This document shows, piece after piece, positions 11,616-64,000 of a stretch of DNA of 64,000 nucleotides; the stretch's first letter is position 1; each line of letters opens with the position of its first letter. The translations under genes were made by a program, and so were the position numbers. The stretch comes from Sphyrna mokarran (Eukaryota): positions 52,266,001-52,330,000 of the forward strand of contig JAGIQG010000008.1 of NCBI GenBank assembly GCA_024679065.1. The letters run 5' to 3'. The notes under the pieces were generated by a model that was not told where the DNA came from, ran no database searches, and saw nothing but the letters and a program-made list of their open reading frames with translations.

Positions 11616-12665
11616 CTCAGCTCCAGGACATCATTGTAAGATTTTCTCAGGGTAATGTCCTAGGCTCAACCATCCCCAGGTTGCGTCATCAATTATCTTC
11701 CTTCCATCATAAGGTCAGAAGTGGGGATGTTCACTGGTGACTGCACAATGTTCACTATCATTCACGACATCTCCAACATTGAAGCAATATCTAAGGTGGT
11801 ATTTTACAGCCTCACTTGACCTGAGACCAGAAAATCCCACCCAAATGTCAACGGACTTTCCCACGGCGTTAATGTCCGAATGCAAGACCTCGACAACATC
11901 CAGGCTGGGGCTAATAAGTTGTAGTTTATTTGTGTCACACTAGTACCAGGCAATGATCATTTCCAAGTAGGGAAGATCTAATCATTACCACCATTGAATT
12001 CCCCCACTAACAACATTGTGCAGGTTACCATTGACGAGAAACTAAACTAGACTAGCCATATAAATATCGTGGCTACAAGAACAGATTGAAGGCTAGGAAT
12101 CTACGGCAAGTGACTCACCTCCTGACTCTCTAAAGCCTATCCAGTTTCTACAAGCGGAGAGTGTAATGGAATACTCTCCACTTGCCTGTATGGGTGCAGC
12201 TCCAATAACACTCAAGAACCTCAATAACATCCAAGATAAAGTAGCCCACTTGATTGCTACTCCTTTCACAAATATTCAATCTCTCCACCACCAACAAAAA
12301 GATATAACCGTGTGTACCATGAACAAGATGCAGGAACTCACTAAGGTTCCTTCAGCAGCACCCTCCAAACAGATAACTGCCATGATCTGGAAGGATAGAA
12401 CAGCAGAGGCCTGGGAATATTAACACATGGAGGTTCACCTCTAAATCATTCACCATTCTGACTTTGAAATGTATCACTGATCCTTCACTGTCAATGGCTC
12501 AAAATCCTGGAATTCCCTCCCTAACAGCACTGTGTGTATGTACATCTCAGCAATTGCAGCAGGTCAAGAAAGCAGCTCACCACCACCACCTTCTCAAGGG
12601 CAATTAGGGGTGAGCAATAAATGCTAGCCTATGGAGCGATGCCCATATCCAGTAAATAAATTTTA
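11616..12665 (+). mobile_element. CR1/L2-clade LINE, second family, RT to 3' end
   Basis: ctcagggtaatgtcctaggc (PQGSVLGP-like), MEYSPLAxM, and tail ttctcaagggcaattaggg..gcaataaatgct. Confidence 0.8.
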
Positions 12666-14600: not shown

Positions 14601-15373
14601 TAAAACAGCTTCAGATTCCAGATTTAGGAAAGTAGTACACTTCCTTGCAATGGAGGCACGAGGAGGAATTTTTTCAAGCAGCAAACGCTTATGATCTGGA
14701 ATGGACAGCGTGGTGGAATTGGATTATTATTTGAAAAGCAATGATGTGTCAGGCCACCATGAGAAGATGGGGAATGGTCTCCTTTAGCTTTCCAGAGTCG
14801 AGATGTATGGTTATAATAAATCACATGTCCATGTTCCATCCTGCACAGATATGTAGAAAGACTGAACCCCTGGCAAACAAATGCTTGGACAGAAATGTAA
14901 ATTGAAATAGAACATCACCCAGAAACTGGTCTCATTTGTTTACCAACTCCAGAAGCTAGAGATTGGGTTTAGAAACATGATCCTCTGAGTCAAAATGCAT
15001 TGTTAATACCAGGTAGGATTTTTTTAAATGTAAAATATCATATAAAAGGCTCAGATTTGTTAAGGGATTAAATAAACCACGAAGGCGATAAACCATCTTT
15101 CAACCTACATACATTTGTGTTTGATTAAAAACTTTGGTTTTGCAAATCTCTTAATTTTTAAGATATGACTATTTATTAGGATGTAATTTGGCAAGTTCTT
15201 TCCCAGTTCTCCAAGCTCTTTGCAAGATTATCCATCACCCATGCGTGTACCTACCTTGTTCTGAAGCTTCCACCAATCTAAAATCCTATCTTAACTCCAC
15301 AGGAGAGAATCCCAACTTGCAAGCTCTAAGCACCTTGCCAATACCCAGCCCCTCTCAAGGCTGATGAGGTCAG

Positions 15374-15429
15374 TTTACTATCAAATAAATCGGTTGGATT
15401 TAAAACTGATGTTGTCAGACTTCGTACTC
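15374..15429 (+). mobile_element. Tiny fragment of the same Penelope-like family
   Basis: tttactatcaaataaatcggttggatttaaaactgatgttgtcagacttcgtact, flanked by aggtcag at 15367-15373 and 15430-15436. Confidence 0.6.
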
Positions 15430-15924: not shown

Positions 15925-17225
15925 AAGGCACTGGATACTGTAAAGACCATGGACCCTGACAATATTCCAGCAGTTAGACTGATTCGCCGTGTTAAATTGA
16001 CCCTTAATGTCAGGGGAACTAGTAGGATAAAGTAGGAACTAGGGGGTTACAGAGATAGCGACTGGCTGGGATTGTTATCAATGCAGGTTCAATAGGCTGA
16101 ATGGCCTCCTCCTGTACTGTAAGGATTCAGATATTCTAGAGATGAGGTGAGATTGACATCGAGGCAGCATTTGGCCAAGTATAGCATCAAGGAGCCCTAG
16201 CAAAATAGGAGTCAGTGAAAATCAGGGGAAAATTCTCCACTAGTTGGAGTCATGTGGCACAAAGGAAGATTGTTGTCTTAGTTGCAGGTCAATCAGCTCA
16301 GTTCTAGGAAATCACTGCAGGTGCTCCTCAGGGTAGTGTCCAAGGCCCAACTATCTTCAGCTGCTACATTAATGACCTTCCTTCCATCATAAGATCAGAA
16401 GTGGGGATGTTCGCTGATAGCTGCACACATTAGCAATTCCTCAGATACTGAAGCAATATCTAATGTTGAAATGCAGCAAGACTTGGGCAACATCCAGACT
16501 GGAGCTGAGAGGTGCAAGTAACATTCATGCCACACAAGTATATGACAAAAACCATCTCCAAAAGCAGAGAATCTAACCATCATCCCATGACATTCAATGG
16601 CATTATTATCATTGAATTTCCTTCCCAATCAATATCCTGGGGGCTACCATTGATCAGAAACTGAACTGGACTAGCCATAGAAATACTATAATTACCAGAG
16701 CAGGTCAGAAACTAGGAATCCTGCAGCTATTAACTCACCTGAGTCCTCAAAGTATGTCCACCATCTACAAGGCACAAATCAGCAGTGTGATGGAATATTC
16801 TCTCCTTGCCTGGATGAATACAGGTCTAATAACATTCGAAGAGCTAACACTATCCAGGACAAAGCAGCCTGCTTGATTGGTTCATTAAATCCCTTCACCA
16901 CTGACGAACAGTGGCAGGCATGTATATTATCTACAAGATGCACTGCAGCAACTCACCAAGGTTCCTTAGGCAGCACCTACTAAACCCATAACCACTATGA
17001 TCTAGAAAGACAAGGATAGTTGATGCCTGGGAACACCACACCTGGAGGGTACCATCCAAGTCACTCTCAGTTCTGATTTAGAAACATATCACTCTTCCTT
17101 CATTGTCCTCCCTAACAGTGCTGAAGGTATACCTACACCCCAGGAATCGAAGCACTTCAAGAAGGCAACTTACCACCACCTTCTCAAAGGTAACTTGGGA
17201 AGGGCAATAATTGCTGGCTTAGCCA
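15925..17225 (+). mobile_element. CR1/L2-clade LINE, second family (HE1 SINE piece inserted at about 15975-16135)
   Basis: cctcagggtagtgtccaaggcccaactatcttcagctgc and ttcgctgat (FAD). Same 3' tail as 11616-12665. Confidence 0.8.
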
Positions 17226-20259: not shown

Positions 20260-23200
20260 TGGCTTCTCTTCTGGTGTTTAATCATAAGATATTGTATGTG
20301 CATAAATTTAAATACAAAAAGCTTGTATGTCTACCAGCGTACAATTTTGAGAAACAGGAAATGAAAAGCAATTCAATCAAATGGTGGCTGATGGTGAGTC
20401 TTCATAACACACTTACCAAAGGATTTCGGTTATGAAGTTATTCATTCAAATCGGCATATGATTCGGAATAAACCAACAACTGAACAGTTAAGCTGTTCAA
20501 GATACATTGTATATTTATCAGCTTAAATGCAAACACTTTGCAAATTAATGAAATGCAATAAACACAACTTTGTCACAAAATGGAGGACTGCACCAATGTA
20601 CCAACTTCAAAGCAGTTCATACAGAATGCCCTGTATAATCTCCAGCCTCTTTTGGATCTGGCAGGATTATCAATAAATGTTAATGAATTACAAATGCTGC
20701 CAGACTTGCTGAGTTTTTCCAGCATTTTTGATTCTTGTTTCAGATTCCAGCATCCGTCATATTGAGACGGGGTCCAGATTTTGCAAGAGTAAGTAGTGCC
20801 TAGAGTCTAGAGATTGAACAGGAGGATAGGATCCAATGGTTAGACATAATCAACATAAGAATGTAAATAGGAGTAGGAGTAGGCCATATAGTCCTTTGAT
20901 TTTGCATTATTCAATTGAATCCTGGCTGAATTTCTGCATCAACTTCACATTCCCACCCTATCCCATATTCCTTCACTTTCGTCACTCTAAAAGCCTTTCA
21001 ACTCAAAGGATTCAGCACAAACTTTGTCACATATTACCGTGCATCACACTTCCAGTTGATGGACAGAAAGTCAAGTTCCTGTAAAATTCCTGGGATGCGC
21101 GATGGTACGAAACGTCCTTGTGTTTTTCTTGTACAGTAGCTTTCACCTGAGGTGAGACCAAATATTCCAGTCCTGTTCCCAGAGACCCATCAGAAAATAC
21201 TCAATGTCCCAAGCTTTGTGACGCTTCTCATTTCAATTTTGTATAACCTCTGCATTTATAATGAATAGGCTCAGTGTACGTATAATGCATATAATGCACG
21301 CCAACACTTCATTATCTTCTACACATATAGCAATAATGGCATATATTATAGCTTTAATACTTATTATTCATAAATAAATTATATATTTAATGTAAAAATA
21401 GAGATACTTAAACATGTTTGCAATAGAACTGCAGTTTAGATGGCAAGGTTCACAGATAACATTTAGATTAAATGAAAAATCTAAACCTTGCATGACCCAA
21501 CAATAGTCATTTATTTGCCAGTGTGATTAACACTTTCAGCGCTGCCACTTTGATTTTATCACCGTGTTAAGATTTTGCATTATGCTTTTGTTCAATCTGA
21601 CTTCTGAAAGACTGGCGTGGTTTTGAAGCTTTCTACCTTCAAATTCGTCAGGGGACGAAAGTCGAAAGGTTGCAGATTTACTATCAAATAAATCGGTTGG
21701 ATTTAAAATTGGCGTTGCCAGATTCTTACTGAGTTTACCCCAGTCCAACGCCGGCATCTCTACATCGTGGTTTTGAAGGCCAGAGCAAGGAGTCTGTGGT
21801 GCGAATTGGGCAGGTGGAGGATCGGTGTGGGAACAGCTTGCTGGTGGGCTGGTTGAGAGCTGATGAGAAATGGCAGGAATGTGAAGGAATCAGCAGAGAT
21901 GAGATGATCCACCTCTTGGGAATGATTTCTGCAGTATCACAGTGCCATGACAGAGATTTGCCAGCATGTCCAATGACAATAGGTACGAGCCAGATTTAAA
22001 AGCGCTACTTTTTAAAAAGGCTACAGAGGAAGGATTCTAAGACCATGGAAATGACAACATCATTTTCATATTGCCATTGCTTTGCAGATGTGGAAACAAA
22101 TCCTCGTTAAATAGGGGATATTTCTAATGCTATCTATGGGAGCCCATTAGCATTGATCTTAACCACTCTGTTAAAGCAAAACAATTCTGGCAATTTTTTT
22201 CACTCCCTTCTTGAAGCTGTTGACCATCTGCCAGTTCTACTGGGGTACTCTAAGAACTCTGTCCAATGTACATTTATTCATAGTGGAGGCAATGGTGAAC
22301 TTAGCCCTTCAAGTTTCAAAGACCAACCCTACCAGATGCTAGCAAAGTTCAACAGAGGACATTCAGGACCGCAGGTGGCTGTTCCTTTCCATTTTGTGCA
22401 GAGCTACTGTAGATCCAGATACTGACCTTCAAAAAGAAATAATTCTTTTTCCTCTTTAATTTCAAGTACCTCGAGGGAAATTTACCCATTAGTAAGAATG
22501 CTGCCAATTCTGTCTTTAAAACAGTAATTCATATTTCTTTGTACATGTTTTATTACAGAGAACTCAACATGATGAGTTAACGTATGAGGAATCAGTATGA
22601 GAACTGAGATCAATAACAGTGGATCATCAGGACTACTGTCCATTCGTCGCAAGACAGGCAAATCAGAAAGGCTCTTCAGCTTCTCACTGCTCATTCATCT
22701 GGAGAGATCAATGACTCCACAACCTTCTTTATCAGTGTCCTATCTGGAAGAGTAACACTTCCTTGCTCCTGCCATCAAACTCAAATTGGTGTACCCTTGT
22801 TTCAGGCATGTGAACTGAAGTTGGTTCTAAACTTACACTGTCGTTTTTCCTAGTCACCAAAGACCCTTGAGCTCGGGTGATCACAGTTCACCCCATGGGT
22901 AAGATTTTAACAGAGTCTGGACAGAAAGCAGACCCTGGCAGTCTCACAACTTTCACTCATGTTGCTCTTAAACCGGAACATGCTCCTTTTGGCTTCCATG
23001 AACTTGTTGTCTGCCTCATCCTTCGATGACGAGTCTTACTCCAAATATCTCCACTGTGTTGGCTTGTCCAGAAAAGAAACAATTGTGATTATCGGAGGAT
23101 AAGCACCCACATGCTGAACACGGTCATTTGTACTAATTGATTTGTAAAGAATGTTGTGCTTGACTCATTTTGATATATCTGCAAAGGGCCTGCAAGGATA

Positions 23201-26161: not shown

Positions 26162-26239
26162 CTTTATGTGCCTGATGCCTCCCATGTTCATCCAAGCCTG
26201 GGACAGATCTGGACTCAATTCTACCGCCTGCTTATAGCT
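26162..26239 (-). CDS. TMTC1: TMTC1 penultimate coding exon
   Basis: acacag|AGC TAT...ATA AAG|gtcagt. Encodes SYKQAVELSPDLSQAWMNMGGIRHIK. 78 nt, phase 0 to 0. Confidence 0.95.
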
Positions 26240-26349
26240 CTGTGTGTTTGAAAACAGAAAAACATACAAAACACACATTTCAGAATCAGAGCAGAAATTC
26301 TGAATACAGAAAGATAAATCTGAGATCCCTTTCTGCCCACAGACATGCG

Positions 26350-27370: not shown

Positions 27371-28234
27371 AAGGATCTGAATAATCCAAGTTTATTTTTT
27401 CAGAATAACTGCACAGTGTACTGTCAGTGCAGAGAGTTTCATTCCAGAGACTCTTTCATTGTGTCAGCCGAATCTGCAAAGAGGCAGAATGACCTTTCAG
27501 ATTCCGAGATGACTGATTTGATGCAGGCAACATACAGCTCAATCTCATTGACAAGTTAATGGACTTCAGTGAGGGTAATGTTAGAAGCACCAGCGATATA
27601 AAGAAAGCACCTTTCTTAACCACTGACATCTTACTGGCAATCGTACAGCCAATGACATACTTTTCAAGGGTAATCACAGATGCCATGTAGGAATAGCAAC
27701 CAATTTGCACACAGAATCTAACCATCTTTCCTTGATATTCATTGGCAAGTCCATCATGGAATCACCTACTGTGGGTTGTTACCACTGAGCAGAAACTAAT
27801 CTGGTCTGACCATTTCAATACTGTGGCTTCAAGAGCAGGTCAGATCTGGAATTCTGCAGCAAGTAACTCACTTTTTTATTCCCCAAAGCCTGTCACCATT
27901 CATAAAGCGCAAGTTAGGAGTGTGATGGAATACTCTCCCTTTGCCTGGATGAGTACAGTTCCATCAACATTCAAGAAGCTCAACACCATCCAGGACAAAG
28001 CAACCTGCTTAGCACCCCATCCTCCACCTTCAACATTCATTTCCACCATGAGTGATGTACATTAGCAGCTGTGTGCGCCAGCCTCAAGATGTACTGCAGC
28101 AACTCACCAAGGCTCCTTAGACAGCATCTTCCAAACCCACAACCATACCCGTCGAGAAGGGCAAGGGCAGCTGATGTGTGAGAACACCATGGTGTTCCAT
28201 AAGTCATTCAACATCCTGATTTGGAAATATATCA

Positions 28235-28560
28235 GTGAGAGGTCTGACAACATCAATTTTAAATCTAACCGATTTATTTGATAGTAAACTTGCAAGCTTT
28301 CAGCCTTTGTAGCCTTCCTCAGGCGAATGAGGTGTAACCGATTTATTCGATAGTAAACTTGAAAGCTTTCGGCCTTTGTAGCCTTCCTCAGGCAAATGAG
28401 GTGTTCAGACCAGAATACCTCATTCACCTGAGGAAGGCTACAAAGGCCAAAAGCTTGCAAGTTTACTATCAAATCCATCGGTTGGATTTAAAATTGGTGT
28501 TGTCAGACCTCTTACTGAATTTACCCCAGTCCAACGCCGGCATCTCTACATCATGACTAC
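28235..28560. mobile_element. Fold-back Penelope-like (pLTR-derived) insertion with three hammerhead motifs
   Basis: Exact 15-bp direct repeat tttggaaatatatca at 28220-28234 and 28561-28575. Inverted arms, with a 69-bp tandem duplication in the left arm. Ends with the family terminus ...tttaccccagtccaacgccggcatctctacatc. Confidence 0.8.
28290..28395 (-). ncRNA. Tandem minimal type I hammerhead ribozyme motifs (candidate dimeric hammerhead)
   Basis: Minus strand reads UUGC-CUGAGGA-A-GGCU-ACAAA-GGCC-GAAA-GCUU (28395-28363), then UCGC-CUGAGGA-A-GGCU-ACAAA-GGCU-GAAA-GCUU-GCAA (28326-28290). Both have the CUGANGA and GAAA cores and a palindromic AGCU stem III. Confidence 0.6.
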
Positions 28561-29799
28561 TTTGGAAATATATCACCATTCCTTCACTGTCACTGGATCA
28601 AAATCCTGGAACTCCCTCCTTAACAGCACTGTGGGTGTATCTACACCACATGGACTACAGCTGTTCAAGAAGGTGGCTCACCATCACCTTCTTAAGGACA
28701 ATTAGGGATGGCCAAACCAGTATTGCTCAATCTTAAATGCCACCTTCCAAGACAGCAATGTGATAATGACAAGATGAGTTGTTATTCTGACGCTGATTTA
28801 GGGGTGAATATTGACTAGGACACAGTGTGTGTCTCCAAAATTCTACAGGTCCTGGAAATCTAAAATAAGAACACAAAATGGTGGGAATACACAGCAGGTT
28901 TGGCAACATCTGTGGAGAGAGAAGCATAGCAAACATTTCGGATTGTGATCTTTAATCAGAAAGATGACTTAAATTCAACCGTGGCACTTTCACTCTGACC
29001 TGTGAGGGGAGGTGGGGTCTTGGTTTAAAACTTCATCCTCTGCCCAGTGCTCCTTTAGATTGAAGTGTCAGGCTGGGTTTGTGTCTTCAAGTCCTGGCGT
29101 AGGGTTTGAACCCACAGTTTTGGGTCAGGGGCAGAAATGTTACCATCTGGCCATAGCTGACCATCCCCACTGCAGATCTGTATTCGAGTCAAATCTGCTG
29201 AACACACTGTTTACAGTGACACCTACTGGAATGCTTGCAGCTTTGAACAGTAAACGAAGACAGGAGTAAACACAGTTGTCCGGCCTTTTCGAGTCAATTA
29301 GTCTCCAACATCTTGGAGAGCATTTTTGTTGAGTTAACAAACTCAGAACATGAAGGAAAGAAAATAATGGGGAAAGGATGTTAAGAGAAACATAAATTAA
29401 GGAAACACGTGAACAAGAAGCAGGAGTAGGCCATTCAGCCGCTTAAGACTCTCTTTATTCTTGTACTGTAATCCCCACTCATTAAAGACCAACACAACCT
29501 TTTCTGATATGCTTCCAACACATTTACATCCTTCCTTACATAAGGTGACCAAAACTGTACCAATTCTCCAAACATGATCTCATTAGTGTGCTCTAGAACT
29601 GAAGCATAACCTCTACATTTTTGTATTCAAATCCCCTTACAATAAGTAAATTCTGAGCTTTCCTAGTTATTTGTTGTATATACATACCAGCTTTTTGTGA
29701 TTCACGCACCAGCACACCCATAGTTCTAACACATTTCATAAATTCAATATTTAGACCCAAATGATAGAATGTGTGATAATTGTTAGATAAATAGGGCAC

Positions 29800-29922
29800 C
29801 TCAAATGCCACATCCAGCCGGTTCAGTTCTCTCAAGAGATTTCCTTCTGAAAAATAAAGTTCTGCAAGGATTTTTGGGTCTTTGGGTTTCATTTGGACAG
29901 CCTTTTTCACAGCGACAAGTGC
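29800..29922 (-). CDS. TMTC1: TMTC1 coding exon
   Basis: acccag|GCA CTT...TTT GAG|gtgccc. Encodes ALVAVKKAVQMKPKDPKILAELYFSEGNLLRELNRLDVAFE. 123 nt, phase 0 to 0. Confidence 0.94.
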
Positions 29923-30029
29923 CTGGGTGGAGAGAGGGACAGATTGTGAGCACTCATCTCTTTGTCACTGAATAATTAAGAAATTACAAACAACTACATA
30001 ATAAAGAATCCAAATTCTAAGCATAAGTG

Positions 30030-31678: not shown

Positions 31679-32344
31679 CTAGCAAAAAAAATTGAGTAAA
31701 TGCAGTTAAAATGCACCATTCCTGTCTTAGAGAATACAGTAAGAAGTCTCACAACACTATGTTAAAGTCCAGCAGGATAGAATCATAGAATCCACAGTGC
31801 AGTACAATCTACAGTCAGTACAATCTACTGTGCAATCTACACTCATTTGGCCCATCAAGCCTGCATCTGAATTGCTACAATAAAAGTGGTGCCCTTTTTC
31901 AAGGCTTCGCAATCTGATCAACACTAACTTGGACGCTGGGGAACACTTCCTCAGGACTAAACACTGTACATTAAACATCTGGTACTATTTCTAAATAAAA
32001 GAAAGCCTCACATTTAAATAGCACCTGAAACGTCCATAGACATTTCACTGGAGTATTATCCAACAGGATTTGACACTGAGCCACACAGATATCCAAGGAT
32101 GTAGACTTGGATAAACGGGTAAGTTTTAAGCAGCAACACAAAGGAGGAAAAATTTCAGGAAGAAATTCCAGAACAGATTTTGTATCTTGGATTTTTGAAA
32201 CTGGGAAATGAAAAGTGATTCCAAGGTTTTACACTGGTAGGTTTTTATCCCTGTTTACAACTACAAATCCCCGACTTGTTACAAAAGAAGGATGGCACGG
32301 TGGCACAGTGGTTAGCACTGCCACGTCACAGCACCACAGGAGTC

Positions 32345-34910: not shown

Positions 34911-35618
34911 CATAGATAGAACATAGAACATAGAACAATACAGCACAGAACAGGCCCTTCGGCCTTCGATGTTGTGCCGACCAAAATAAAAAGCAATGCC
35001 CCTCCTAACTAAACCATTCCCTTCTCATCCATATACTTATCAACTAACCTCTTAAACGCCACCAAACTTGGCGCATCTACAACAGCTGCAGGCAGGGCAT
35101 TCCACTCCCTAATCACTCTTTGAGTAAAGAACCTACCTCTGATATCCGTCCTATAACTCATACCCCTTAATTTAAAGTTGTGTCCCCTCGTGCTAGCTTT
35201 CTCCATCCTAGGAAAAAGGCTATCACTGTCCACCCTATCTAAACCTCTAATCATCTTATATGTTTCAATAAGATCCCCTCTTAGCCGCCTCCTTTCTAAC
35301 GAAAACAACCTCAAATCCTTCAACCTCTCTTCATAGGACCTGCCCTCCATACCAGGCAACATCCTAGTAAACCTCCTCTGTACCCTCTCCAATGCCTCCA
35401 CATCTTTCTTATAATGTGGCGACCAGAACTGCACACAATACTCCAAGTGCGGCCGCACTAGAGTTTTGTACAGCTGCAACATGATGCTGCGGCTCCTAAA
35501 TTCAATCCCCCTACCAATAAAAGCTAAGACTCCATAAGCCTTCTTAACAACTTTATCCACTTGACTGCCTACTTTCAGGGATCTATTGACACATACACCA
35601 AGATCCTTCTGTTCCTCT
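34911..35618 (-). mobile_element. 5'-truncated CR1/HER1-type LINE, relatively young
   Basis: Uninterrupted ORF2 C-terminus (35009-35560: LYKTLVRPHLEYCVQFWSP...LERRRLRGDLIETYK...FFTQRV..WNALP) and a (TTCTATG)n 3' tail. Confidence 0.95.
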
Positions 35619-35760
35619 AGGTATGATATAACTATATATAAGGTATGCTATATATATAACTATATGATATAACTATATGATATAACTATATATAAGGTAA
35701 GCTATATATAGGTATGATATAACCTATCTAGGTATGATAGGTATGATATAACAATATAAT
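35619..35760. repeat. AT-rich minisatellite-like filler
   Basis: Scrambled repeats of aggtatgatataactatatata. Confidence 0.85.
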
Positions 35761-36416: not shown

Positions 36417-37494
36417 CTGCAAACAGGAACAACAGAACACCTTCAACATGCGGCAAACTCCCTGATACATTATTTTTATCACTATCAGGCGCAAGCATCT
36501 CCAGATTACAGTCTGGTTGTCAACAGGTAAGGGAGTAAACTGCCAGTGTGGCCATCTCCCAGCTCCGCTCCAGTGTACAAAGGTCAAACAATTCAAGTAG
36601 TTCTCAATATGGAAGTCACTGCAAGGCCACACAGTGGCTGGGAATCGCCAGTTTAACCGCTGCGGATTTGGGTGTGGGCCTATTACCAAAAGTCAAGAGT
36701 GTTCGGAACAAACAACGTTCACCAAATCAACAGTTTCAATTTACTCCAGATGTTCATTTCGGATTATGAAAACTGGAGTCAAATCAGCCTTTTTTCTGCT
36801 TAATTCAAAGCAGAAATATGCAGCGAACCAGGCAATAGCTGTAGAGAGAGCAGACAAATTCACTCGGGAAACAGACGCATCTACCAAACATTACAGCATT
36901 TAAAAAGGGGACAGGATGAGCGGTGGGGTATATAGGCAGACATAAAAGACAAGAAGACAATCAAAGATAGAGGTTGGGATTTTCCAGCCATTCCCAGTGG
37001 TGGGATCTTCTGGTCCTGTCAAAGGTGATACCCCACCCAGCAGCAGGACAGATGAGCCAAACAAAGCACCATAGACATCGGCGGGACTGGAGGATCCCAC
37101 TGTCTGCCAATGGTGAGCTGCTTCCGACACCAGAAAACATGCTGCTGGGGGCAGAGGTCACGCCGATTTACCTGAAAAGGCCCAAAAAGAAATATCATAA
37201 AAAAGATGGAGATAGAAAAAAAGATTTCTCTTGCACCTTTCATACATACAGATTCCTTCTCAGCCAATGGAGTCCTCCTGTGCTGTAATTCAGTCAATTT
37301 CACATAGCAAATCCCACAGACAACCATGTAATAATGAGCAGATATCCTGCCTTTCTAATGTTGATTGATGGATAGATATTGGCCAGGATGACATGCAATA
37401 ACTTCCCTGTTTTTTTTTAATAATTCTGCCGGGGAGTGTTTCCATCAAGCTGAGGGGGCTGATAGGCTTCAGTTTACTGTCCCATTAAAAAGAT

Positions 37495-38330
37495 AGAAGG
37501 AAATCCCACAACACCAGTTTAAAGTCGGAACAGGTTTATTTGTAGCAAAAGCTGCAAGCTTTAGGGGCAGCCTGTCCCTTCGTCAGGTGGCTGGGAACTC
37601 CCAGATTATTTGTTGCAACTGTACAGGGTACTGGTAAGGCCGCAGCTGGAGTACTATGTGCAGTTTTGGTCGCCGCATTGCAGAAGGATATATTGGCCTT
37701 GGAGGGAATGCAGAGAAGGTTCACTAGGCTGATACCGGAGATGAAGGGGTTAGCCTATGAGAAGAGATTGAGTAGACTAGGTTTGAGTAGACTAGGTTTG
37801 TACTTGTTGGAGTTGAGAAGGTTGATGGGGGGACCTTATAGAGACATATGAGATAATGAAGGGGCTGGATAGGGTAGAGGTAGAGAGATTTTTCTTGATT
37901 AGAAAGGATAGCAGTACTAGAGGGCACAGCCTCAAAATAAGTAAAGGGGAGCAGTTTAGATCAGAGTTGAGGAGGAACTTCTTCACTCAAAGGGTGGTTA
38001 ATCTTTGGAATTCTCTGCCAGTTGAAGTGGCGGAGGCTTCCTCGCTGAATATATTTAAGTCATGGGTAGATAGGTTTCTAATAAACAAGGGAATTAAGGG
38101 TTATAGGGATAAAGCGGGAAAGTGGAACTGATCCACTTCAAATCAGCCAGGATTTTACCGAATGCAGGGCAGGCTCGAGGGGCTAGATGGCTTACTCCTG
38201 CTCCTATTTCTTATGTTCTTATGTTTTATGTTCTTATTTACTACAAATAAACCTGTTTGAACTTCAAACTGGTGTTGTGGGATTTCTTTCTGTTTTACCC
38301 CAGTCCAATGCCGGCATCTCCACATCATGA
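37495..38330. mobile_element. Fold-back Penelope-like insertion split by a CR1 3' fragment
   Basis: Flanked by ccattaaaaagat (37482-37494) and ccatcaaaaagat (38331-38343). The left arm carries a mutated hammerhead (37553-37589, minus). The right arm (about 38240-38330) ends with the family terminus. Confidence 0.7.
37612..38236 (+). mobile_element. CR1 LINE 3' fragment (same subfamily as 42881-44435)
   Basis: KDILALEGMQRRFTRLIP and RRNFFTQRVVNLWNSLP. Tail (ttcttatg)n. Confidence 0.93.
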
Positions 38331-38448
38331 CCATCAAAAAGATGACATAGAGTGGACTTCCACAGATAGCCTTTCATTCCTTGCTTTCTGACTTTGTCTC
38401 CCAAGATCATTTAGGTTCCCCATTTAGAGACTGTGTGTGTTAAAGGTG

Positions 38449-42880: not shown

Positions 42881-44435
42881 AGAACATAAGAAATAGGAGC
42901 AGGAGTAGGCCAGCTAGCCCCTCGAGCCTGCCCCACCATTCAACAAGACCATGGCTGATCTGAAGTGGATCTGTTCCACTTACCCACTTTCTCCCCATTA
43001 TCCTTAGTTCCCTTGTCTATCAGAAACTTATCTATCTGTGACTTAAATACATTCAGCAAGGTAGCCTCCACCACTTCAGTGGGCAGAAAATTCCGGAGAC
43101 TCACCACCCCTTGAGTGAAGAAGTTTCTCCTCAACTCCAATCTAAACTGCTCCCCCCCCCCACCTTATTTTGAGGCTGTGCCCTCTAGTTCTGCTATCCT
43201 TTCTAAGCAAGAAGAATCTCTCTACCTCTACCCTATCTACCCCTTCATTATCTTGCAAGCCTCTGTAAGATCCCCCCTCAGCCTACTAAATTCCAACGAG
43301 TACAGACCTAGTCTATTCAATCTCTCCTCATACGCTAACCCCCTCATCTCCAGTATCAGCCTAGTGAAACTTCTCTGCATTCCCTCCAAGGCCAATATAT
43401 CCTTTCGCAAATGCAGCGACCAAAACTGCACACAGTACTCCAGTTGTGGCCTCACCAATGCCCTGTACAGTTGCAGCAAGACCTCCCTGCTTTTATATCC
43501 TATCCCCCTCACTATAAAGACCAACATTCCATTCGCCTTCTTGATCACCTGCTGCATCTGCAGGCTGGGTTTTTGTGACTCGTGCACAAGGACCCCCAGT
43601 CCCTTCGCACCATAGCATGCTGCAGCTTTTTGCCCTTTAAATGATAATCTCTCTTACTATTATTTCTACAAAGTGGATAACCTCACACTTGCTCCATCTG
43701 CCAGTTCCTCGCCCACTCACTCAGCCTATCCAGATCTCTCTGCAGACTTTCCATGTCCTCCACGCAATTTGCTTTTCCACTCATCTTCGTGTCATCAGCA
43801 AATTTCATTACCTTACACTCAGCCCCCTCCTCCAGATCGTCTATGTAAATGATACACAGTTGAAGCCCCAGCACTGATCCCTGCGGCACTCCACTAGTCA
43901 CCAACTGCCAACCAGAATAGCACTCATTGATTCCAACTCTCTGCTTCCTATTAGACAACCAATTCTCTATCCATGCTAACACTTTACCCCCAACTCCGTG
44001 CACCCTAACCTTTTGCAGCAACCTTTTGTGAGGCACCTTATCAAACGCCTTCTGAAAATCTAAAAACACCACATCCACCGGTTCCACTCTTTCTCCCACA
44101 TTAGTCACATCCTCATAGAAATCCAATAAATTTGTCAAACACAACTTCCCCTTTATGAATCCGTGTTGTGTCTGCTTGATCAAACTGTTCTTTTCTTGGT
44201 GTCTTGCTATTTCTTCTTTGATGATGGATTCTAGCATTTTTCCAACTACACACGTTAAACTAACCAGCCTATTGTCTGCTACCTTTTTTAAACAGCAGCA
44301 TAACATTAGCTGTTTTCCAATCTTCCAGCACTTCCCCAGAGTCCAGCAAATTTTGATAAATAATTACTAAGGCATCCGCTATCACTTCTGCCATTTCTTT
44401 CAGAACCCTGGGATACATTCCATCCGGTCCCGGGA
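42881..44435 (-). mobile_element. CR1 LINE fragment (RT domain to 3' end)
   Basis: ORFs with QHGF, LDFQKAFDKVPH, GVPQGSVLG, KFADDTK and LVRPQLEYCVQFW. 3' tail cctatttcttatgttct. Frameshifted. Confidence 0.95.
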
Positions 44436-46689: not shown

Positions 46690-48240
46690 AAAAACAGTAT
46701 AGCACAAGAACAGGCTTTTTGGCACACCAAGTCTGACACAGTTACCTCACCAATATAATATTTTCCCCAGTCTACGTGGTCCATATTTCTCTATTCCCTA
46801 CCTATTCATGTATCTATCCAGATGCCTCTTGAACGTTGTTATAGAATCTGCTTCCATCAACTTCGCCGGCAACATGTTCCAGGCATTCACTACCGTGTGT
46901 GTGAAACATTTGCCCCTTACATCTCTCTTCAACTTTCCCCCTCTCGCTTTCGACCTACTCCCTCGAGTAATTGACCCTTCAATCCTGGAAAAAAGACTGA
47001 CTACACATACTATCCAAACCTGTCGTAATCTTGTAAACCTCTTTCAGGTCTCCCATCATCTTCCAAAGAAAACAATCCAAGTTTGTTCAACCTTTCTTCA
47101 TAATCCATATCCTCCAAACCAGGCAACATCCTGGTAAATCTTTTCTGCACGTTTTCTAATGCATCAACATCCTTCCGGTAGAGTGGCAACCAGAATGGTA
47201 CACAATATCCAAATGCACCTAATCAAAGTCTTATAATAACTGCAACATGATTTTTCAATGCTGTATTCAACATCCTGAAAGCATGCCATATGCCTTCTTG
47301 ATTACCTTGTCCAAGTGAGTTGGCACCTACAGGGAACTGTGTATCTGCAAACCTAGATCCCTCTATTTACTAATATCTCTAAGGGCTCGACCATTTACTA
47401 TATACTTTCCTCCTTCAGTAGCCCTTCCAAATTGCACTGCCTCACATTTGTCTGGGTTAAATTCCATCTATCATCTTTCTGCCAGGTCTCCAGCAAATTT
47501 CTATCCAGCTGTATCATCTGACAAACTTCCTCACTATCCGCTATTTCCCCAGATTTTGTATCATCTGCAAATTTACTAATCAAACCACCTACATTTTCCT
47601 CCAAATCATTGATATATATCACAAACAACAGAGATCCCAGCACTGATCCTTGTAGGATATCACTTATCACAGACCTCCAGTTAGAAAAGTACCCTTACAC
47701 TGATACCTCTCTGCTTTTTGTGGCCAAACCAATTTTGAGTCCATCTTACCAGCTCACTTTGGATCCTGTATGATTTCATCTTCTGTAGCAGCCTGCCATG
47801 AAGGATTGAAGGATTTACTAAAATCCAATATACAACATCCACTTCCCTGCCCTGGTCAATTTTTCTTGTCACTTCCTCAAAGAACTCAATCAAATTTGTG
47901 AGACATGACCTCCCCTTCACAAAACCATGCTGCCTATTGTTAATAAGCCCATTCTCTTCCAGATGTGATTATATCCTGTACCTAAAAACCTTCTCCAATA
48001 ATTTCCCCACCACTGACGTAAGGCTCACAGGCCTGTAATTTTCCAGATTGTCTCTTCTGCCTTTCTTAATCAGAGGAACAATGTTAACTACTCTCCAATC
48101 CTCTGGTACCTCACCTGTGGCTAAAGAGGACAAAAAGATTTTGGCCAAGACCTCAACAACTTATACCCTTGCCTCTCTCAGTATTTTGGGTTAGTGCCTA
48201 TCCAGCCCTGGGGACTTGTCCACCTTAAAGTTTTTCAAAT
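46690..48240 (-). mobile_element. CR1/HER1 LINE fragment, decayed
   Basis: KGRSCLTNLIEFFEEVT, QGSVLGSLLFVIYINDL and KFADDTK in broken frames. Confidence 0.92.
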
Positions 48241-48483: not shown

Positions 48484-49147
48484 TACAAAGAAAGCCAAAG
48501 GGCTATATTGGGTGTTTCGATTTTACACTTAGTAGGGGAGGTAATGGTGTAGTGGTATTGTTACTGGGTTAATAACCCAGAATAATGCTCTGGGTACCTA
48601 GGTTCAAATCCCATCACAGCAGTTGGTAAAATTTTTATCTATATAGCTGTTGGGGCCATTTCATTAGATTTGTTCAAGTGGGAGCTGGACGTGGCCCTTG
48701 TGGTTAAAGGAATTAAGAGGTATGGAGAGAAAGTGGGAGTGTGATACTGAAAGTGCTTAATCAGTTATGATCATATTGAATGGTGGTGCAGGCTCAAAGG
48801 GCTGAATGGCCTACTCTTGCCCCTAGTGTTATCTATGTTTGAAAATTGTTGTCTGGTTCAGGACAGCACAAATGGTGTCTTACCCCACTTTGTCAATAGG
48901 CGGAGCCATATTCCATATTTTTGACACGACCTACTTGAATTTCCTGGAGTCTAAAAGTCTCAGACACATTAGAGCTGCCCTTTCTTGAAGTTTCCACTAT
49001 TTCAGGCAGCACGGGCCATCCGAATCACAGAATAATAGTCACTGCATTAAAACAATTCTCTGGATCTTTTACCCCTGCATTTCTCCTGATTTAATCCATC
49101 AAGATTCCACAACTCTCATAAACCTCCTCTGTTTGAAAGAAAGCAAT

Positions 49148-49291
49148 AAGAAATTTCAAAACACCAGGTTAAAGCCCAACAGATTTATTTGGCAGCAAAA
49201 TCCACTACCAAATAAACCTGTTGGACTTTAACTTGGTGTTGTGAGACTTCTTACTGTGTTTACCCCAGTTCAACACAGGCATCTCCACATC
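49148..49291. mobile_element. Fold-back Penelope-like insertion (hammerhead part deleted)
   Basis: Flanked by gaaagaaagcaat (49135-49147) and gaaagaaggcaat (49292-49304). Inverted arms acaccaggttaaagcccaacagatttatttgg and ccaaataaacctgttggactttaacttggtgt. Family terminus present. Confidence 0.75.
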
Positions 49292-49871
49292 GAAAGAAGG
49301 CAATCCCAGCTTCTCCAGTCCCCCCACAAATAAATAATGGTGCCAGCACTCGAGCACTCCAATAAAATGTAGCTTTCAAAGGTAAAACAGCTGACTTCAG
49401 TCAGCAGCCCTCACTGAGCACTACAAAACATCAAAATTAACTGGGCCAGTTAAAGCCTTTGTCCTTGGGTCAGTTAGGTACACGTTCAATGAACCGTAAC
49501 TTCAAGGGCCGTACATGATGTTTAAATGCACGTTCCACCGACTAGTGTACCCTGATGGGTTGCTGATTCTAACATGTCTTGTTCTGGTTGAGGATTCAGC
49601 TTTGAATTAGCCCTTTCCAAACCTCTAGGCCCATAAAGTTCAGATGGAAAACAGCCAATCTCGGTTCAGATTCGCATAAGTGGTGGAACAGTCAGCAAAA
49701 TCTCTGATGTTGCATGTGGTTGATCCACAGCATAAGGATACCTAACTTCACTGACACTAGTAGATAATGTAATGTCAATGCATTGCAAGTCATTGAGGAT
49801 CATTTGCTGTGATGCAGAGTAAAATCATACTAAACATACCCACACACACCTATAAGCACACACACTCAAAT

Positions 49872-58184: not shown

Positions 58185-60232
58185 TCCTGGCAGACACGGA
58201 GGAAATGGCCGAGTGAGGGAACCATGGTTCACAAAGGAGGTTGAATGTTTTGTCAAGGGGAAAAAGGAAATGTATGTAAGGATGAAAAAGCAAGGTTCAG
58301 TTGAGTCGTTTGAGGGTTACGAGGTAGTAGGAATGAGTTAAAAAAAAAGGCTTAGGAGAGCTAAGAGGGGGCATGAGAAGTCCTTGGCGGGTCAGATAAA
58401 GGAAAGCCCTCAAGCTTTTTGTTCTTATGTGAGAAATAAAAGAATGACCAGGGTGAGGTTAGGGCCAGTCATGGATAGTAGTGGGAACTTGTACATGGAG
58501 TCAGAAGAGATAGGCGAGGTGCTGATGAATACTTTTGTTCAGCGTTCACTAAGGAGAGGGGCCATGTTTTTGAGGATGAATGTATGATACAGGCTGACAG
58601 GGTGGAGGAGATAGAAGTTCTGAGGGAAGATGTGTTAGCAATTTTTAAAAACCTGAAGGTCATTAAGTCCCCTTGGTCAGTTGAGATAAATTCTAGGATA
58701 CTTTGGGAGGCAAGGGATGAGATTGTGGAGCCTTTAGCTCTGATCTTTAGATCCTCACTGTCCACAGGGATTGTACCAGAGGACTGGAAAGTGGTGAATG
58801 TTGTTCCCCTCTTCAAGAAAGGAAACAGGAATGAGAAATAGGAATGATTCTGGTAATTATAGGCCAGTTAGTCTTACTTCAGTGGTTGGTAAGTTAATGT
58901 AAAGGGTCCTGAGATATAGGATTTATGACCATTTGGAAAGATGCAGTTTAATCCGGGATAGGCAGCACAGTTTCATGAGGGGTAAGTCCTGCCTCACAAA
59001 TTTGACTGAATTCGTTGAGGAGGTAACTAACTGTGTAGATGAGGCTAGAGCAGTTGATGTTGTATACGTGGATTTTAATAAGGTGTTTGATAGTAACACA
59101 TTAGTGTTAGTAAGGTTCTCCATGATAGGCTCACGAAGAAAGTAAGGAGGTGTGGGATAGAAGGAAATTTGGTCAATTGGATAAGTAACTGGCTGTATTA
59201 TAGAAGACAGAAAGTGGTGATAGAGAGAAAATTTTCAGACTGGAGGCCAGTTACCAACGGTGTACCGCAGGAATCAGTGCTGGGTTCTCTGCTATTTGTG
59301 ATTTTTATCAATGACTTGGAAGAGGAGGCTGAAGGGTGGGTTAGTAAATTTGCTGATGACACCAAGATTGGTGGAGTAGTGGATGAGGTGGACAGCTCTT
59401 GCAGGCTGCAAAGAGACATTAATAGGATGCAGAGCTGGACTGAAAAGTGGCAAATGGAGTTTAACACTGACAAATGCAAGATGATTCATTTTAGTAGGAC
59501 AAACATGAATGTGGATTACAGGGTCAACAGTAGGATTCTGAGGAATATGGAGGAACAGAGAGATCTCGGGGTTCATATCCATAGATCTCTGAAGGTTTCC
59601 ACGGAAGTGGATAGAGCCGTGAAAAAGGCTTATTAACAGGGGGTTTGAGTTTAAGAGCCATGGGGTTATTCTGCAACCATACCAGACCTCGGTGAGACCA
59701 CATTTGGAATATCGTGTGCAGTTCTGATCATCTCACTATAAGAAGGATGTGGAAGCATTGGAGAGAGTGCAGAGGAGATTTACCAGGACCCTGCCTGGTT
59801 TGGAAGGTAGGTCTTATGAGGAAAGATTGAGGAAGCTGGGGCTTTTCTCTTTAGAGTAGAGGAAGATGACAGGTGACTTAATAGAGGTTTATAAGATTAT
59901 AAGGGGGATAGATTGAATGGACGTGCAGAGACTATTTCCTCGGGTGGATGTAGCTGTTACTAGGGCACATAACTTTAAGGTTTATGGTGGGAGATATAGG
60001 AGGAATGTCCGAGATAGATACTTTACTCAGAGAGTGGTTGGGTGTAGAATCCACTGCTGTGATAGTGGAGACGAACACTTTAGGAACTTTCAAGCGGTTA
60101 TTGGATAGGCACGTGGAGCACACCAGAATTATAGGGAGGGGATAGCTTGATCTTAGGTTTGGACATAGCTCGATACAGCTTCGGGGCCGAAGGGCCTGTA
60201 CTGTGCTATACTGTTCTATATTCTATGTTCTA
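58185..60232 (+). mobile_element. CR1/HER1 LINE fragment (linker, RT, 3' end), decayed
   Basis: PEDWKVVNVVPLFKKG, KSCLTNL, GVPQESVLG, KFADDTK. Tail ttctatattctatgttcta. Confidence 0.95.
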
Positions 60233-63722: not shown

Positions 63723-64000
63723 CATGATGTGGACATGCCAGCGTTGGACTGGGGTAAACATGGTAAGAAATCTTACAACACCAGGTTAAAGTCCAATAGG
63801 CTTATTTGATAGCACAAGCCACAAGCTTTTGCCTCTTCATCAGGTGAGCAGGAGTTCTGTTTGCAAACAGGGCATATAAAGACACAAACTCAATTTACTG
63901 AATAATGGTTGAAATGCGACTCTTTACAGGTAATCAAGTCTTAAAGGTACAGACAATATGAGCAGAGAGGGTTAAGCACAGGTTAAAGAGATGTGTATTG
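63723..64000 (-). mobile_element. Penelope-like element end, running off the window
   Basis: Reverse complement of the family terminus (gatgtggacatgccagcgttggactggggtaaac). Hammerhead remnant CAC-CUGAUGA-AGAGGC-AAAA-GCUU-GUG at 63820-63846 (minus), followed by further sequence to the window edge. Confidence 0.7.

Follow-up and report, generated by a model that had tools for sequence, protein, structure and literature searches.

Our analysis of the 64-kb window, the whole stretch of Sphyrna mokarran DNA under study, indicated that the insertion at 28235-28560 is, with a probability of about 85%, a decaying and inactive Penelope-type end in an intron of TMTC1, with its hammerheads predicted to be locked in a long hairpin. 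As the first-pass annotation had described, the insertion measures 326 bp and is bounded by an exact 15-bp TSD, whose two copies of TTTGGAAATATATCA are 100% identical. The plus-strand portion (28413-28555) forms a complete element end consisting of a hammerhead, a spacer of about 60 nt and a 37-nt tail, and the minus-strand tandem portion is a second, inverted copy of this end that stops at the tail base. The antisense copy that had been singled out as a special built-in feature is therefore the main, tail-bearing arm, and the same head-to-head arrangement recurs in four TSD-flanked insertions of the window. The inverted portion holds a tandem with a period of 69 nt (28266-28334/28335-28403; 94% identity, 2.0 copies in TRF) whose units differ at 4 of 69 positions, and both units bear the annotated series CUGAGGA-A-stem II-GAAA-GCUU on the minus strand, the TMTC1 sense. 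The main arm is complementary to either tandem unit; it pairs best with unit 2 and its flank (28232-28333 with 28417-28518; 102 nt, 92%, an 8% difference) and less well with unit 1 (28336-28406 with 28413-28483; 71 nt, 89%, arms 6 nt apart), a preference that had been missed, and the left-arm match reaches 3 nt into the TSD, starting at 28232. The inverted third copy does carry the mutated GAAA (G12A), and the arm that holds it is longer (28413-28518) than the 28424-28460 stated in that annotation. Coordinates are collected in Table 1.

Table 1. Positions of the insertion's parts, of the predicted cleavage site and of the surrounding host features (window coordinates).
Feature	Position	Strand	Details
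TMTC1 exon downstream of the insertion	26162..26242	-	tblastn
High-copy host repeat interrupted by the insertion	27848..28715	.	
Left TSD, 15 bp, derived from host repeat	28220..28234	+	
Inverted (left) arm, 3' part, ending at the family's tail-less end	28235..28265	-	
Tandem unit 2 (3' unit in TMTC1 sense)	28266..28334	-	C3 28322, G12 28301, H17 28294
Predicted scissile bond of the composite site, after CUU	28293..28294	-	pair table, structure only
Tandem unit 1 (5' unit)	28335..28403	-	C3 28391, G12 28370, intact G10.1-C11.1 stem II
Head-to-head junction, 6 nt between the inverted arms	28407..28412	.	
Main (right) arm, antisense to TMTC1, third hammerhead copy inside	28413..28518	+	
Third hammerhead core in main arm	28428-28456	+	G12A at 28449
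37-nt tail, on main arm only	28519..28555	+	family end at 28554-28555
Right TSD, 15 bp	28561..28575	+	
TMTC1 exon upstream of the insertion	29800..29925	-	tblastn

The insertion belongs to a high-copy shark repeat whose end is most likely the 5'-truncated pseudo-LTR (pLTR) of a Penelope-like retroelement (PLE). Four TSD-flanked, head-to-head insertions of the family were located in the window (21629-21765, 28235-28560, 37495-38330 and 49148-49291), with a TSD of 15 bp at 28235 and of 13 bp in the other three, including one mismatch each at 37495 and 49148. The tail lies on the right arm in all four, and three of them have left arms that stop at a common tail-less site. Further copies at 15372-15428, 31733-31776 and 63723-63847 have no recognised inverted partner, and within the window only the insertion at 28235 contains a tandem among the copies of this family. 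The insertion at 49148 (144 bp, spanning 49135-49304 with its TSDs) is inverted head to head yet contains no hammerhead, which indicates that inversion is independent of the ribozyme. At 21616-21778, a 137-bp insertion of the same subfamily has an inverted arm with a degenerate core in which GAAAGCUU is completed by target sequence; its main arm carries a different stem II, and its left arm is atypical and partly target-like. The older head-to-head insertion at 37482-38343 has a left arm with a TMTC1-sense hammerhead that has lost G12, and its two arms stand apart with about 650 bp of other, LINE-like sequence between them. A single tail-bearing minus-strand copy at 63723-63850, with roughly 150 bp of probable pLTR sequence in front of it, combines a perfect short stem I with G12A and a shortened stem II.

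The assignment to PLEs rests on architecture and motif, since no RT or GIY-YIG ORF could be tied to the family. Four of the five features tested as defining an EN+ PLE end insertion were present, and the traits seen include a head-to-head inverted 5'-truncated copy, a one-sided 37-nt tail and a TSD. PLE insertions are described as typically truncated at the 5' end and partly in tandem, with an inverted copy next to them and a tail of 30-40 bp on one side (Craig 2021, PMC8557442). Insertions of EN+ PLEs as portrayed in PMC3846280, PMC8557442 and PMC11167929 resemble ours in the inverted 5'-truncated copy, the 30-40 bp tail at one end, the TSD and the placement of the tail end, some 100 nt downstream of where the hammerhead cuts; ours differs from those accounts in having no ORF, a TSD of 15 bp rather than 8-10 bp and a 69-nt duplication in the inverted arm. 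Among 40 ORFs selected from the 190 window ORFs of at least 72 aa, none matched Pfam. The main arm forms a 48-codon open frame running through hammerhead and tail (28410-28553), and this frame is broken by stops or frameshifts in other copies; reading it as the start of a PLE ORF was rejected as unproven, because no long protein was found and the only hit was an unnamed 104-aa singleton, which looks like the translation of another repeat copy. That the repeat derives instead from some other retroelement family, equipped with a minimal hammerhead and twin-primed inversions, would fit both the lack of PLE coding sequence tied to it and TSDs of 13-15 bp, which exceed the 8-10 bp given for Adineta PLEs (Arkhipova 2013, PMC3846280). 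We consider such an origin extremely unlikely, given that the inverted arm duplicates the 3' part rather than continuing upstream of it, that the 37-nt tail is one-sided and that the hammerhead has all PLE-type traits. Our literature search found no dedicated study of shark hammerhead ribozymes or of Penelope repeats in shark genomes, and tandem hammerhead elements are listed for one chondrichthyan (Li et al. 2026, bioRxiv 10.64898/2026.07.22.740005).

Sequencing contigs agreed with a repetitive family. When contigs of four out of 24 listed sequencing runs (X1-X4) were placed on 28000-28800 at 80% likeness, the summed contig depth of X1 over 28324-28458 reached 56,345-225,084 against 8-18 for single contigs, a sum that is not a copy number and nonetheless marks a high-copy repeat. 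Hundreds of X1 contigs leave at 28554-28555 into unrelated flanks, placing the family's end there. Letter shares were drawn from 40 shown of 123 differences and are biased towards the window's letter, because each contig was placed on the best-fitting of three copies; with this bias, and among the differences listed, relatives carrying G12 at 28449 accounted for 62% of the depth in X1 and 31% in X2, those with C11.1 at 28302 for 58% and 88%, those with C2.3 at 28394 for 39% and 84%, and those with C17 at 28294 for 36% and 25%. A different but still pairing stem II stands behind the same core at 37556-37586, at 21655-21664 and at an X1 joint of 28301-28383, an observation that is qualitative only. 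With differing stem II sequences that still pair and with relatives that keep G12 and C11.1, the family-wide loss of conservation named beforehand as refuting the hammerhead interpretation was not seen, and the motif is a genuine PLE-type minimal hammerhead. A steep drop in depth at 28294-28302 might have reflected truncation at the cleavage site; this reading was rejected, as the joints at 28301 show different stem II sequences there. In X3 and X4, cover was almost absent over 28243-28485 and heavy on the tail, a gap that proves nothing. Joints from 28287/28288 to 28477 and from 28330 to 28484 were seen in X1 and X2 (depth about 170-215 in X1), weak at 80% likeness; they fit an inversion of other copies at different breakpoints, and they suggest that certain short hairpin-shaped derivatives, their inversion points fixed, may have multiplied as units. 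A 22-nt pattern had 0, 1 and 3 loci in public prokaryotic, viral and metagenome collections, sequences that share the pattern only and were rejected as chance, and the tail pattern had 0 and 0 loci in public collections.

The hammerhead core pattern CTGANGAN{8,22}GAAAGCTH had three matches in the 64-kb window against 0.04 expected, a number reached in none of 100 shuffles, and two of the three are tandem units 1 and 2. When G12 was relaxed, six matches were obtained (0.25 expected), all six inside insertions of this repeat family. The core C3UGANGA9 ... G12AAA15.1 ... U16.1H17 is complete in both tandem units and fails in the plus-strand copy through G12A, a change that can shift the metal preference to Zn, so that the copy need not be wholly dead with every ion (PMC7151607). 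As the first-pass annotation had stated for PLE-associated minimal type I hammerheads, an extra nucleotide follows A9 (between A9 and 10.1) and stem III (15.1/15.2-16.1/16.2) is palindromic, its AGCU/AGCU pairs allowing a dimeric stem III; G10.1-C11.1 is present as well, and these traits match the motifs in PMC4209133. The G10.1-C11.1 pair is G-C in unit 1 and a G-U wobble in unit 2 (28314/28302), the latter overlooked in the first reading. Compared with the minimal type I hammerheads of metazoan PLE pseudo-LTRs (PMC4209133; Lunse et al. 2016), our motifs are alike in the core, the extra nucleotide, G10.1-C11.1, the palindromic stem III with its need for a dimer, the many truncated dispersed copies and the close pairs of motifs on opposite strands. 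They are unlike those described there in belonging to a shark family, in having a 4-bp stem II, in the spacing of two motifs only 69 nt apart in cis and in the damage to each copy, which leaves only the cross-unit junction complete. Rfam placed no hammerhead at gathering score in the window, and none of the eight rows obtained at E up to 10 in 28100-28700 was a hammerhead; the miRNA-family rows in that interval score well under the gathering thresholds and are explained by the hairpin alone.

A double-hammerhead junction is built from the core and the 5' stem I strand of one unit and the cleavage strand of the other. The annotated pairing of UUGC in unit 1 with GCAA in unit 2 was right in topology and in the position of the cut, as judged from the pair table. 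Junction 1 combines the unit 1 core with the cleavage strand of unit 2 (GCUU/GCAA), placing H17 at 28294 and N1.1 at 28293, and its elements are a 6-bp stem I (CG, GC, UA, UA, UG, AU), a 4-bp stem II (GC, GC, CG, UG) and a stem III of AU, GC, CG and UA. Unit 1 cannot pair with its own cleavage strand because its own N1.1 is U (28362), and the stem I of the unit 2 type amounts to 2 bp, a C-A mismatch and 3 bp, against the 6 bp formed across units; a short helix I of 4-5 bp is among the traits that define the PLE-type motif. Junction 2 has the G10.1-U11.1 wobble together with C-U and C-A mismatches in stem I. The composite junction, as modelled, is structurally valid, with every structural element present. 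GCA occupies 1.1-1.3 in three independent insertions of the window.

The tandem could alternatively be a copy of a small non-LTR retrozyme with a 69-nt monomer, amplified through a self-cleaved circular RNA and inserted together with its inverted arm. By the working definition that Li et al. 2026 apply, two consecutive units with complete cores qualify; their family consensuses measure 51 to 972 bp, with one chondrichthyan represented, and TRF finds the array here. Like animal non-LTR retrozymes (PMC7229834; Li et al. 2026), it consists of two tandem hammerhead-core units, derives from a pLTR and is intronic, as are about 44% of the retrozyme copies in Xenopus tropicalis according to these sources. 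Nevertheless, this origin appears quite unlikely: the array has only 2.0 copies, no other family copy in the window is tandem, and on both sides it is flanked by single-copy-per-arm pLTR sequence, which a 69-nt circle would not carry. The tandem also departs from the retrozymes described in these papers in its very short 69-nt unit, its minimal motif without a stem III loop, its two units and the antisense arm over the tandem, and it lacks the canonical type I hammerhead in repeats of 150-450 bp used as the criterion by Cervera 2020 (PMC7229834). Embedding of the tandem in ordinary pLTR sequence favours a local duplication.

The differences among the three copies point to decay at CpGs. Ten columns vary, and four of the ten lie in two CpGs, each of which changed twice independently (2.3/2.2 and 11.1/12). 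U2.3 of unit 1 (28394) lies at a CpG and UCGC is common among relatives; the perfect UUGC/GCAA stem I at this locus thus probably stems from the conversion of this CpG cytosine to U and not from a feature of the family, whose own stem I, with position 28291 (N1.3) outside the 40 differences listed, may be perfect or carry a C-A mismatch. One junction received both damaging changes and the other the improving one, a split that by our arithmetic arises by chance about 1 time in 4 and is thus no sign of selection; selection would also produce it. The 11.1/G12 dinucleotide is damaged in four of the six family copies that show it (28302, 28449, 37563 and 63830), and where it is a CpG, its loss may be how such motifs usually become inactive. 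The hammerheads are likely decaying neutrally.

Folding was treated as an equilibrium nearest-neighbour prediction, which leaves out Mg, tertiary contacts, proteins and editing. In the bare tandem (28260-28410), constrained partition functions placed junction 1 at 6.5 kcal/mol above the ensemble, a predicted cost due mostly to a local CCUCA/UGAGG hairpin that takes up the core of each unit. Mg and tertiary contacts could overcome this margin, so the excised tandem might cut weakly in vitro. With the main arm included, the predicted cost of junction 1 rose to 62.1 kcal/mol at 37 C and 73.6 kcal/mol at 20 C; adding as much as 340 nt of flanking sequence on both sides left the cost unchanged, and only 30 nt of the main arm already cost 26 kcal/mol. 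In the growing TMTC1-sense RNA, the core of unit 1 was predicted to be paired with the arm until unit 2 is complete, after which the core of unit 2 is paired instead, so that the core of one unit was arm-paired with a probability of 1.0 at all eight transcript lengths and at three temperatures. Because junction 1 needs both units and one is always arm-paired, it is predicted never to form. The suggestion that the inverted copy, being transcribed first, sequesters the tandem thus gained support from the model at every length. The proposal that a composite site may survive held in part: its structure is complete, whereas cutting in TMTC1 pre-mRNA is unlikely on these predictions. Published observations describe low activity of minimal hammerheads as dimers (PMC4209133), eight of nine predicted Xenopus dimers uncut (bioRxiv 10.64898/2026.07.22.740005) and an anole hammerhead that was cleaved only in the presence of the element's protein, could be dispensed with for insertion in vitro and left no RNA-seq ends at its site (PMC11167929).

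TMTC1 lies on the minus strand, and eight of its consecutive exons were placed in the window by tblastn, with matches 95-96% identical to a TMTC1-like protein of Mustelus asterias; one exon peptide gave a 92-94% match to shark TMTC1 proteins. The tandem hammerheads are sense-oriented in the intron, 1.2 kb below the upstream exon. This position would fit a scenario in which the composite site is live in the pre-mRNA and the inverted arm acts as a switch, the freed tandem cutting the intron and modulating TMTC1 output. Editing or helicases might bring about the release, as might the element's protein or a transcript whose start lies between the arm and unit 1; the junction has a complete core, G10.1-C11.1, a palindromic stem III and a 6-bp stem I, an intronic ribozyme modulates the maturation of Cpeb3 mRNA (PMC10919898), and the anole PLE hammerhead is protein-assisted (PMC11167929). 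We regard a live switch as very unlikely in view of the 62 kcal/mol penalty with sequestration at every transcript length, the core-masking hairpin present even in the bare tandem, the arm's status as a routine insertion product, the pattern of CpG decay and the CUU triplet, which, in agreement with the first-pass annotation, belongs to the weakest triplet class (PMC8879150). Sense orientation of a ribozyme motif in an intron of a protein-coding gene is shared with CPEB3 (PMC10919898) and with amniote intronic hammerheads; unlike host-retained intronic ribozymes described in that literature, ours is a TSD-flanked member of a high-copy repeat that shows CpG-type decay and is predicted to form a blocking hairpin. 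On the features seen here, the locus gives no hint of a host-retained intronic ribozyme of the CPEB3 kind.

A decaying Penelope-type end can be accounted for by the following sequence of events. The element's protein would have nicked both target strands 15 bp apart, and two cDNAs, primed from the tail end and from an internal tail-less start site, would have been joined 5' to 5'; fold-back self-priming, proposed in PMC3846280, is an alternative to joined cDNAs. In an anole PLE, both target strands are cut and extended, and the tail lies between two RT start sites (Frangieh 2024, PMC11167929). The 69-nt duplication would have arisen at or soon after insertion, in keeping with the 4/69 differences between units and the 8% over 102 nt against the arm. 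Later CpG deamination presumably struck three positions: 11.1 (unit 2), G12 (main arm) and 2.3 (unit 1). The change at 2.3 would have converted a C-A mismatch into a U-A pair and so created, by chance, one complete double-hammerhead junction. This junction is predicted to form only in RNA that lacks the main arm, and in the pre-mRNA the arm would pair first with unit 1 and then with unit 2, resulting in no cleavage and an intronic hairpin of about 100 bp.

It is quite unlikely, on the present evidence, that the 69-nt duplication gave birth to a cis double hammerhead whose site is still competent and which the inverted arm makes tolerable in TMTC1. If it did, head-to-head insertion would be a built-in safety catch genome-wide, under which sense intronic dimers would survive mainly beneath an antisense arm and could be released by editing or unwinding. 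Masking, if it proved to filter intronic ribozyme dimers genome-wide, would help to account for the thousands of self-cleaving motifs that vertebrate introns tolerate. As a decaying Penelope-type end, the locus joins known parts (the element end, a minimal hammerhead, an inverted arm, a tail and a TSD) in a lineage little described for such elements, and it has modest value as a compact natural construct for testing cis dimeric cleavage and antisense masking.

The insertion interrupts a host repeat that is itself abundant, and two paralogues of this repeat (12096-12612 and 16715-17207) lack the insert and continue uninterrupted through the site. No contig of the four sequencing runs spans the whole insertion stretch, and joints from 28232 to 28579 across the insertion were found in 7, 4 and 6 contigs of X1, X3 and X4, respectively. 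These joints are probably host-repeat paralogues; because the flanks are a high-copy repeat, orthologous and paralogous contigs are indistinguishable. TMTC1 introns in the window contain broken frames at 35009-35647, 43683-44363, 46801-48160 and 59097-59636, which we take to be LINE-like reverse transcriptases. Positions 20683-20811, which weakly resemble (83% over 18 aa) the alternative C-terminus found in the TMTC1-like protein of Mustelus, are possibly an alternative last exon of TMTC1.
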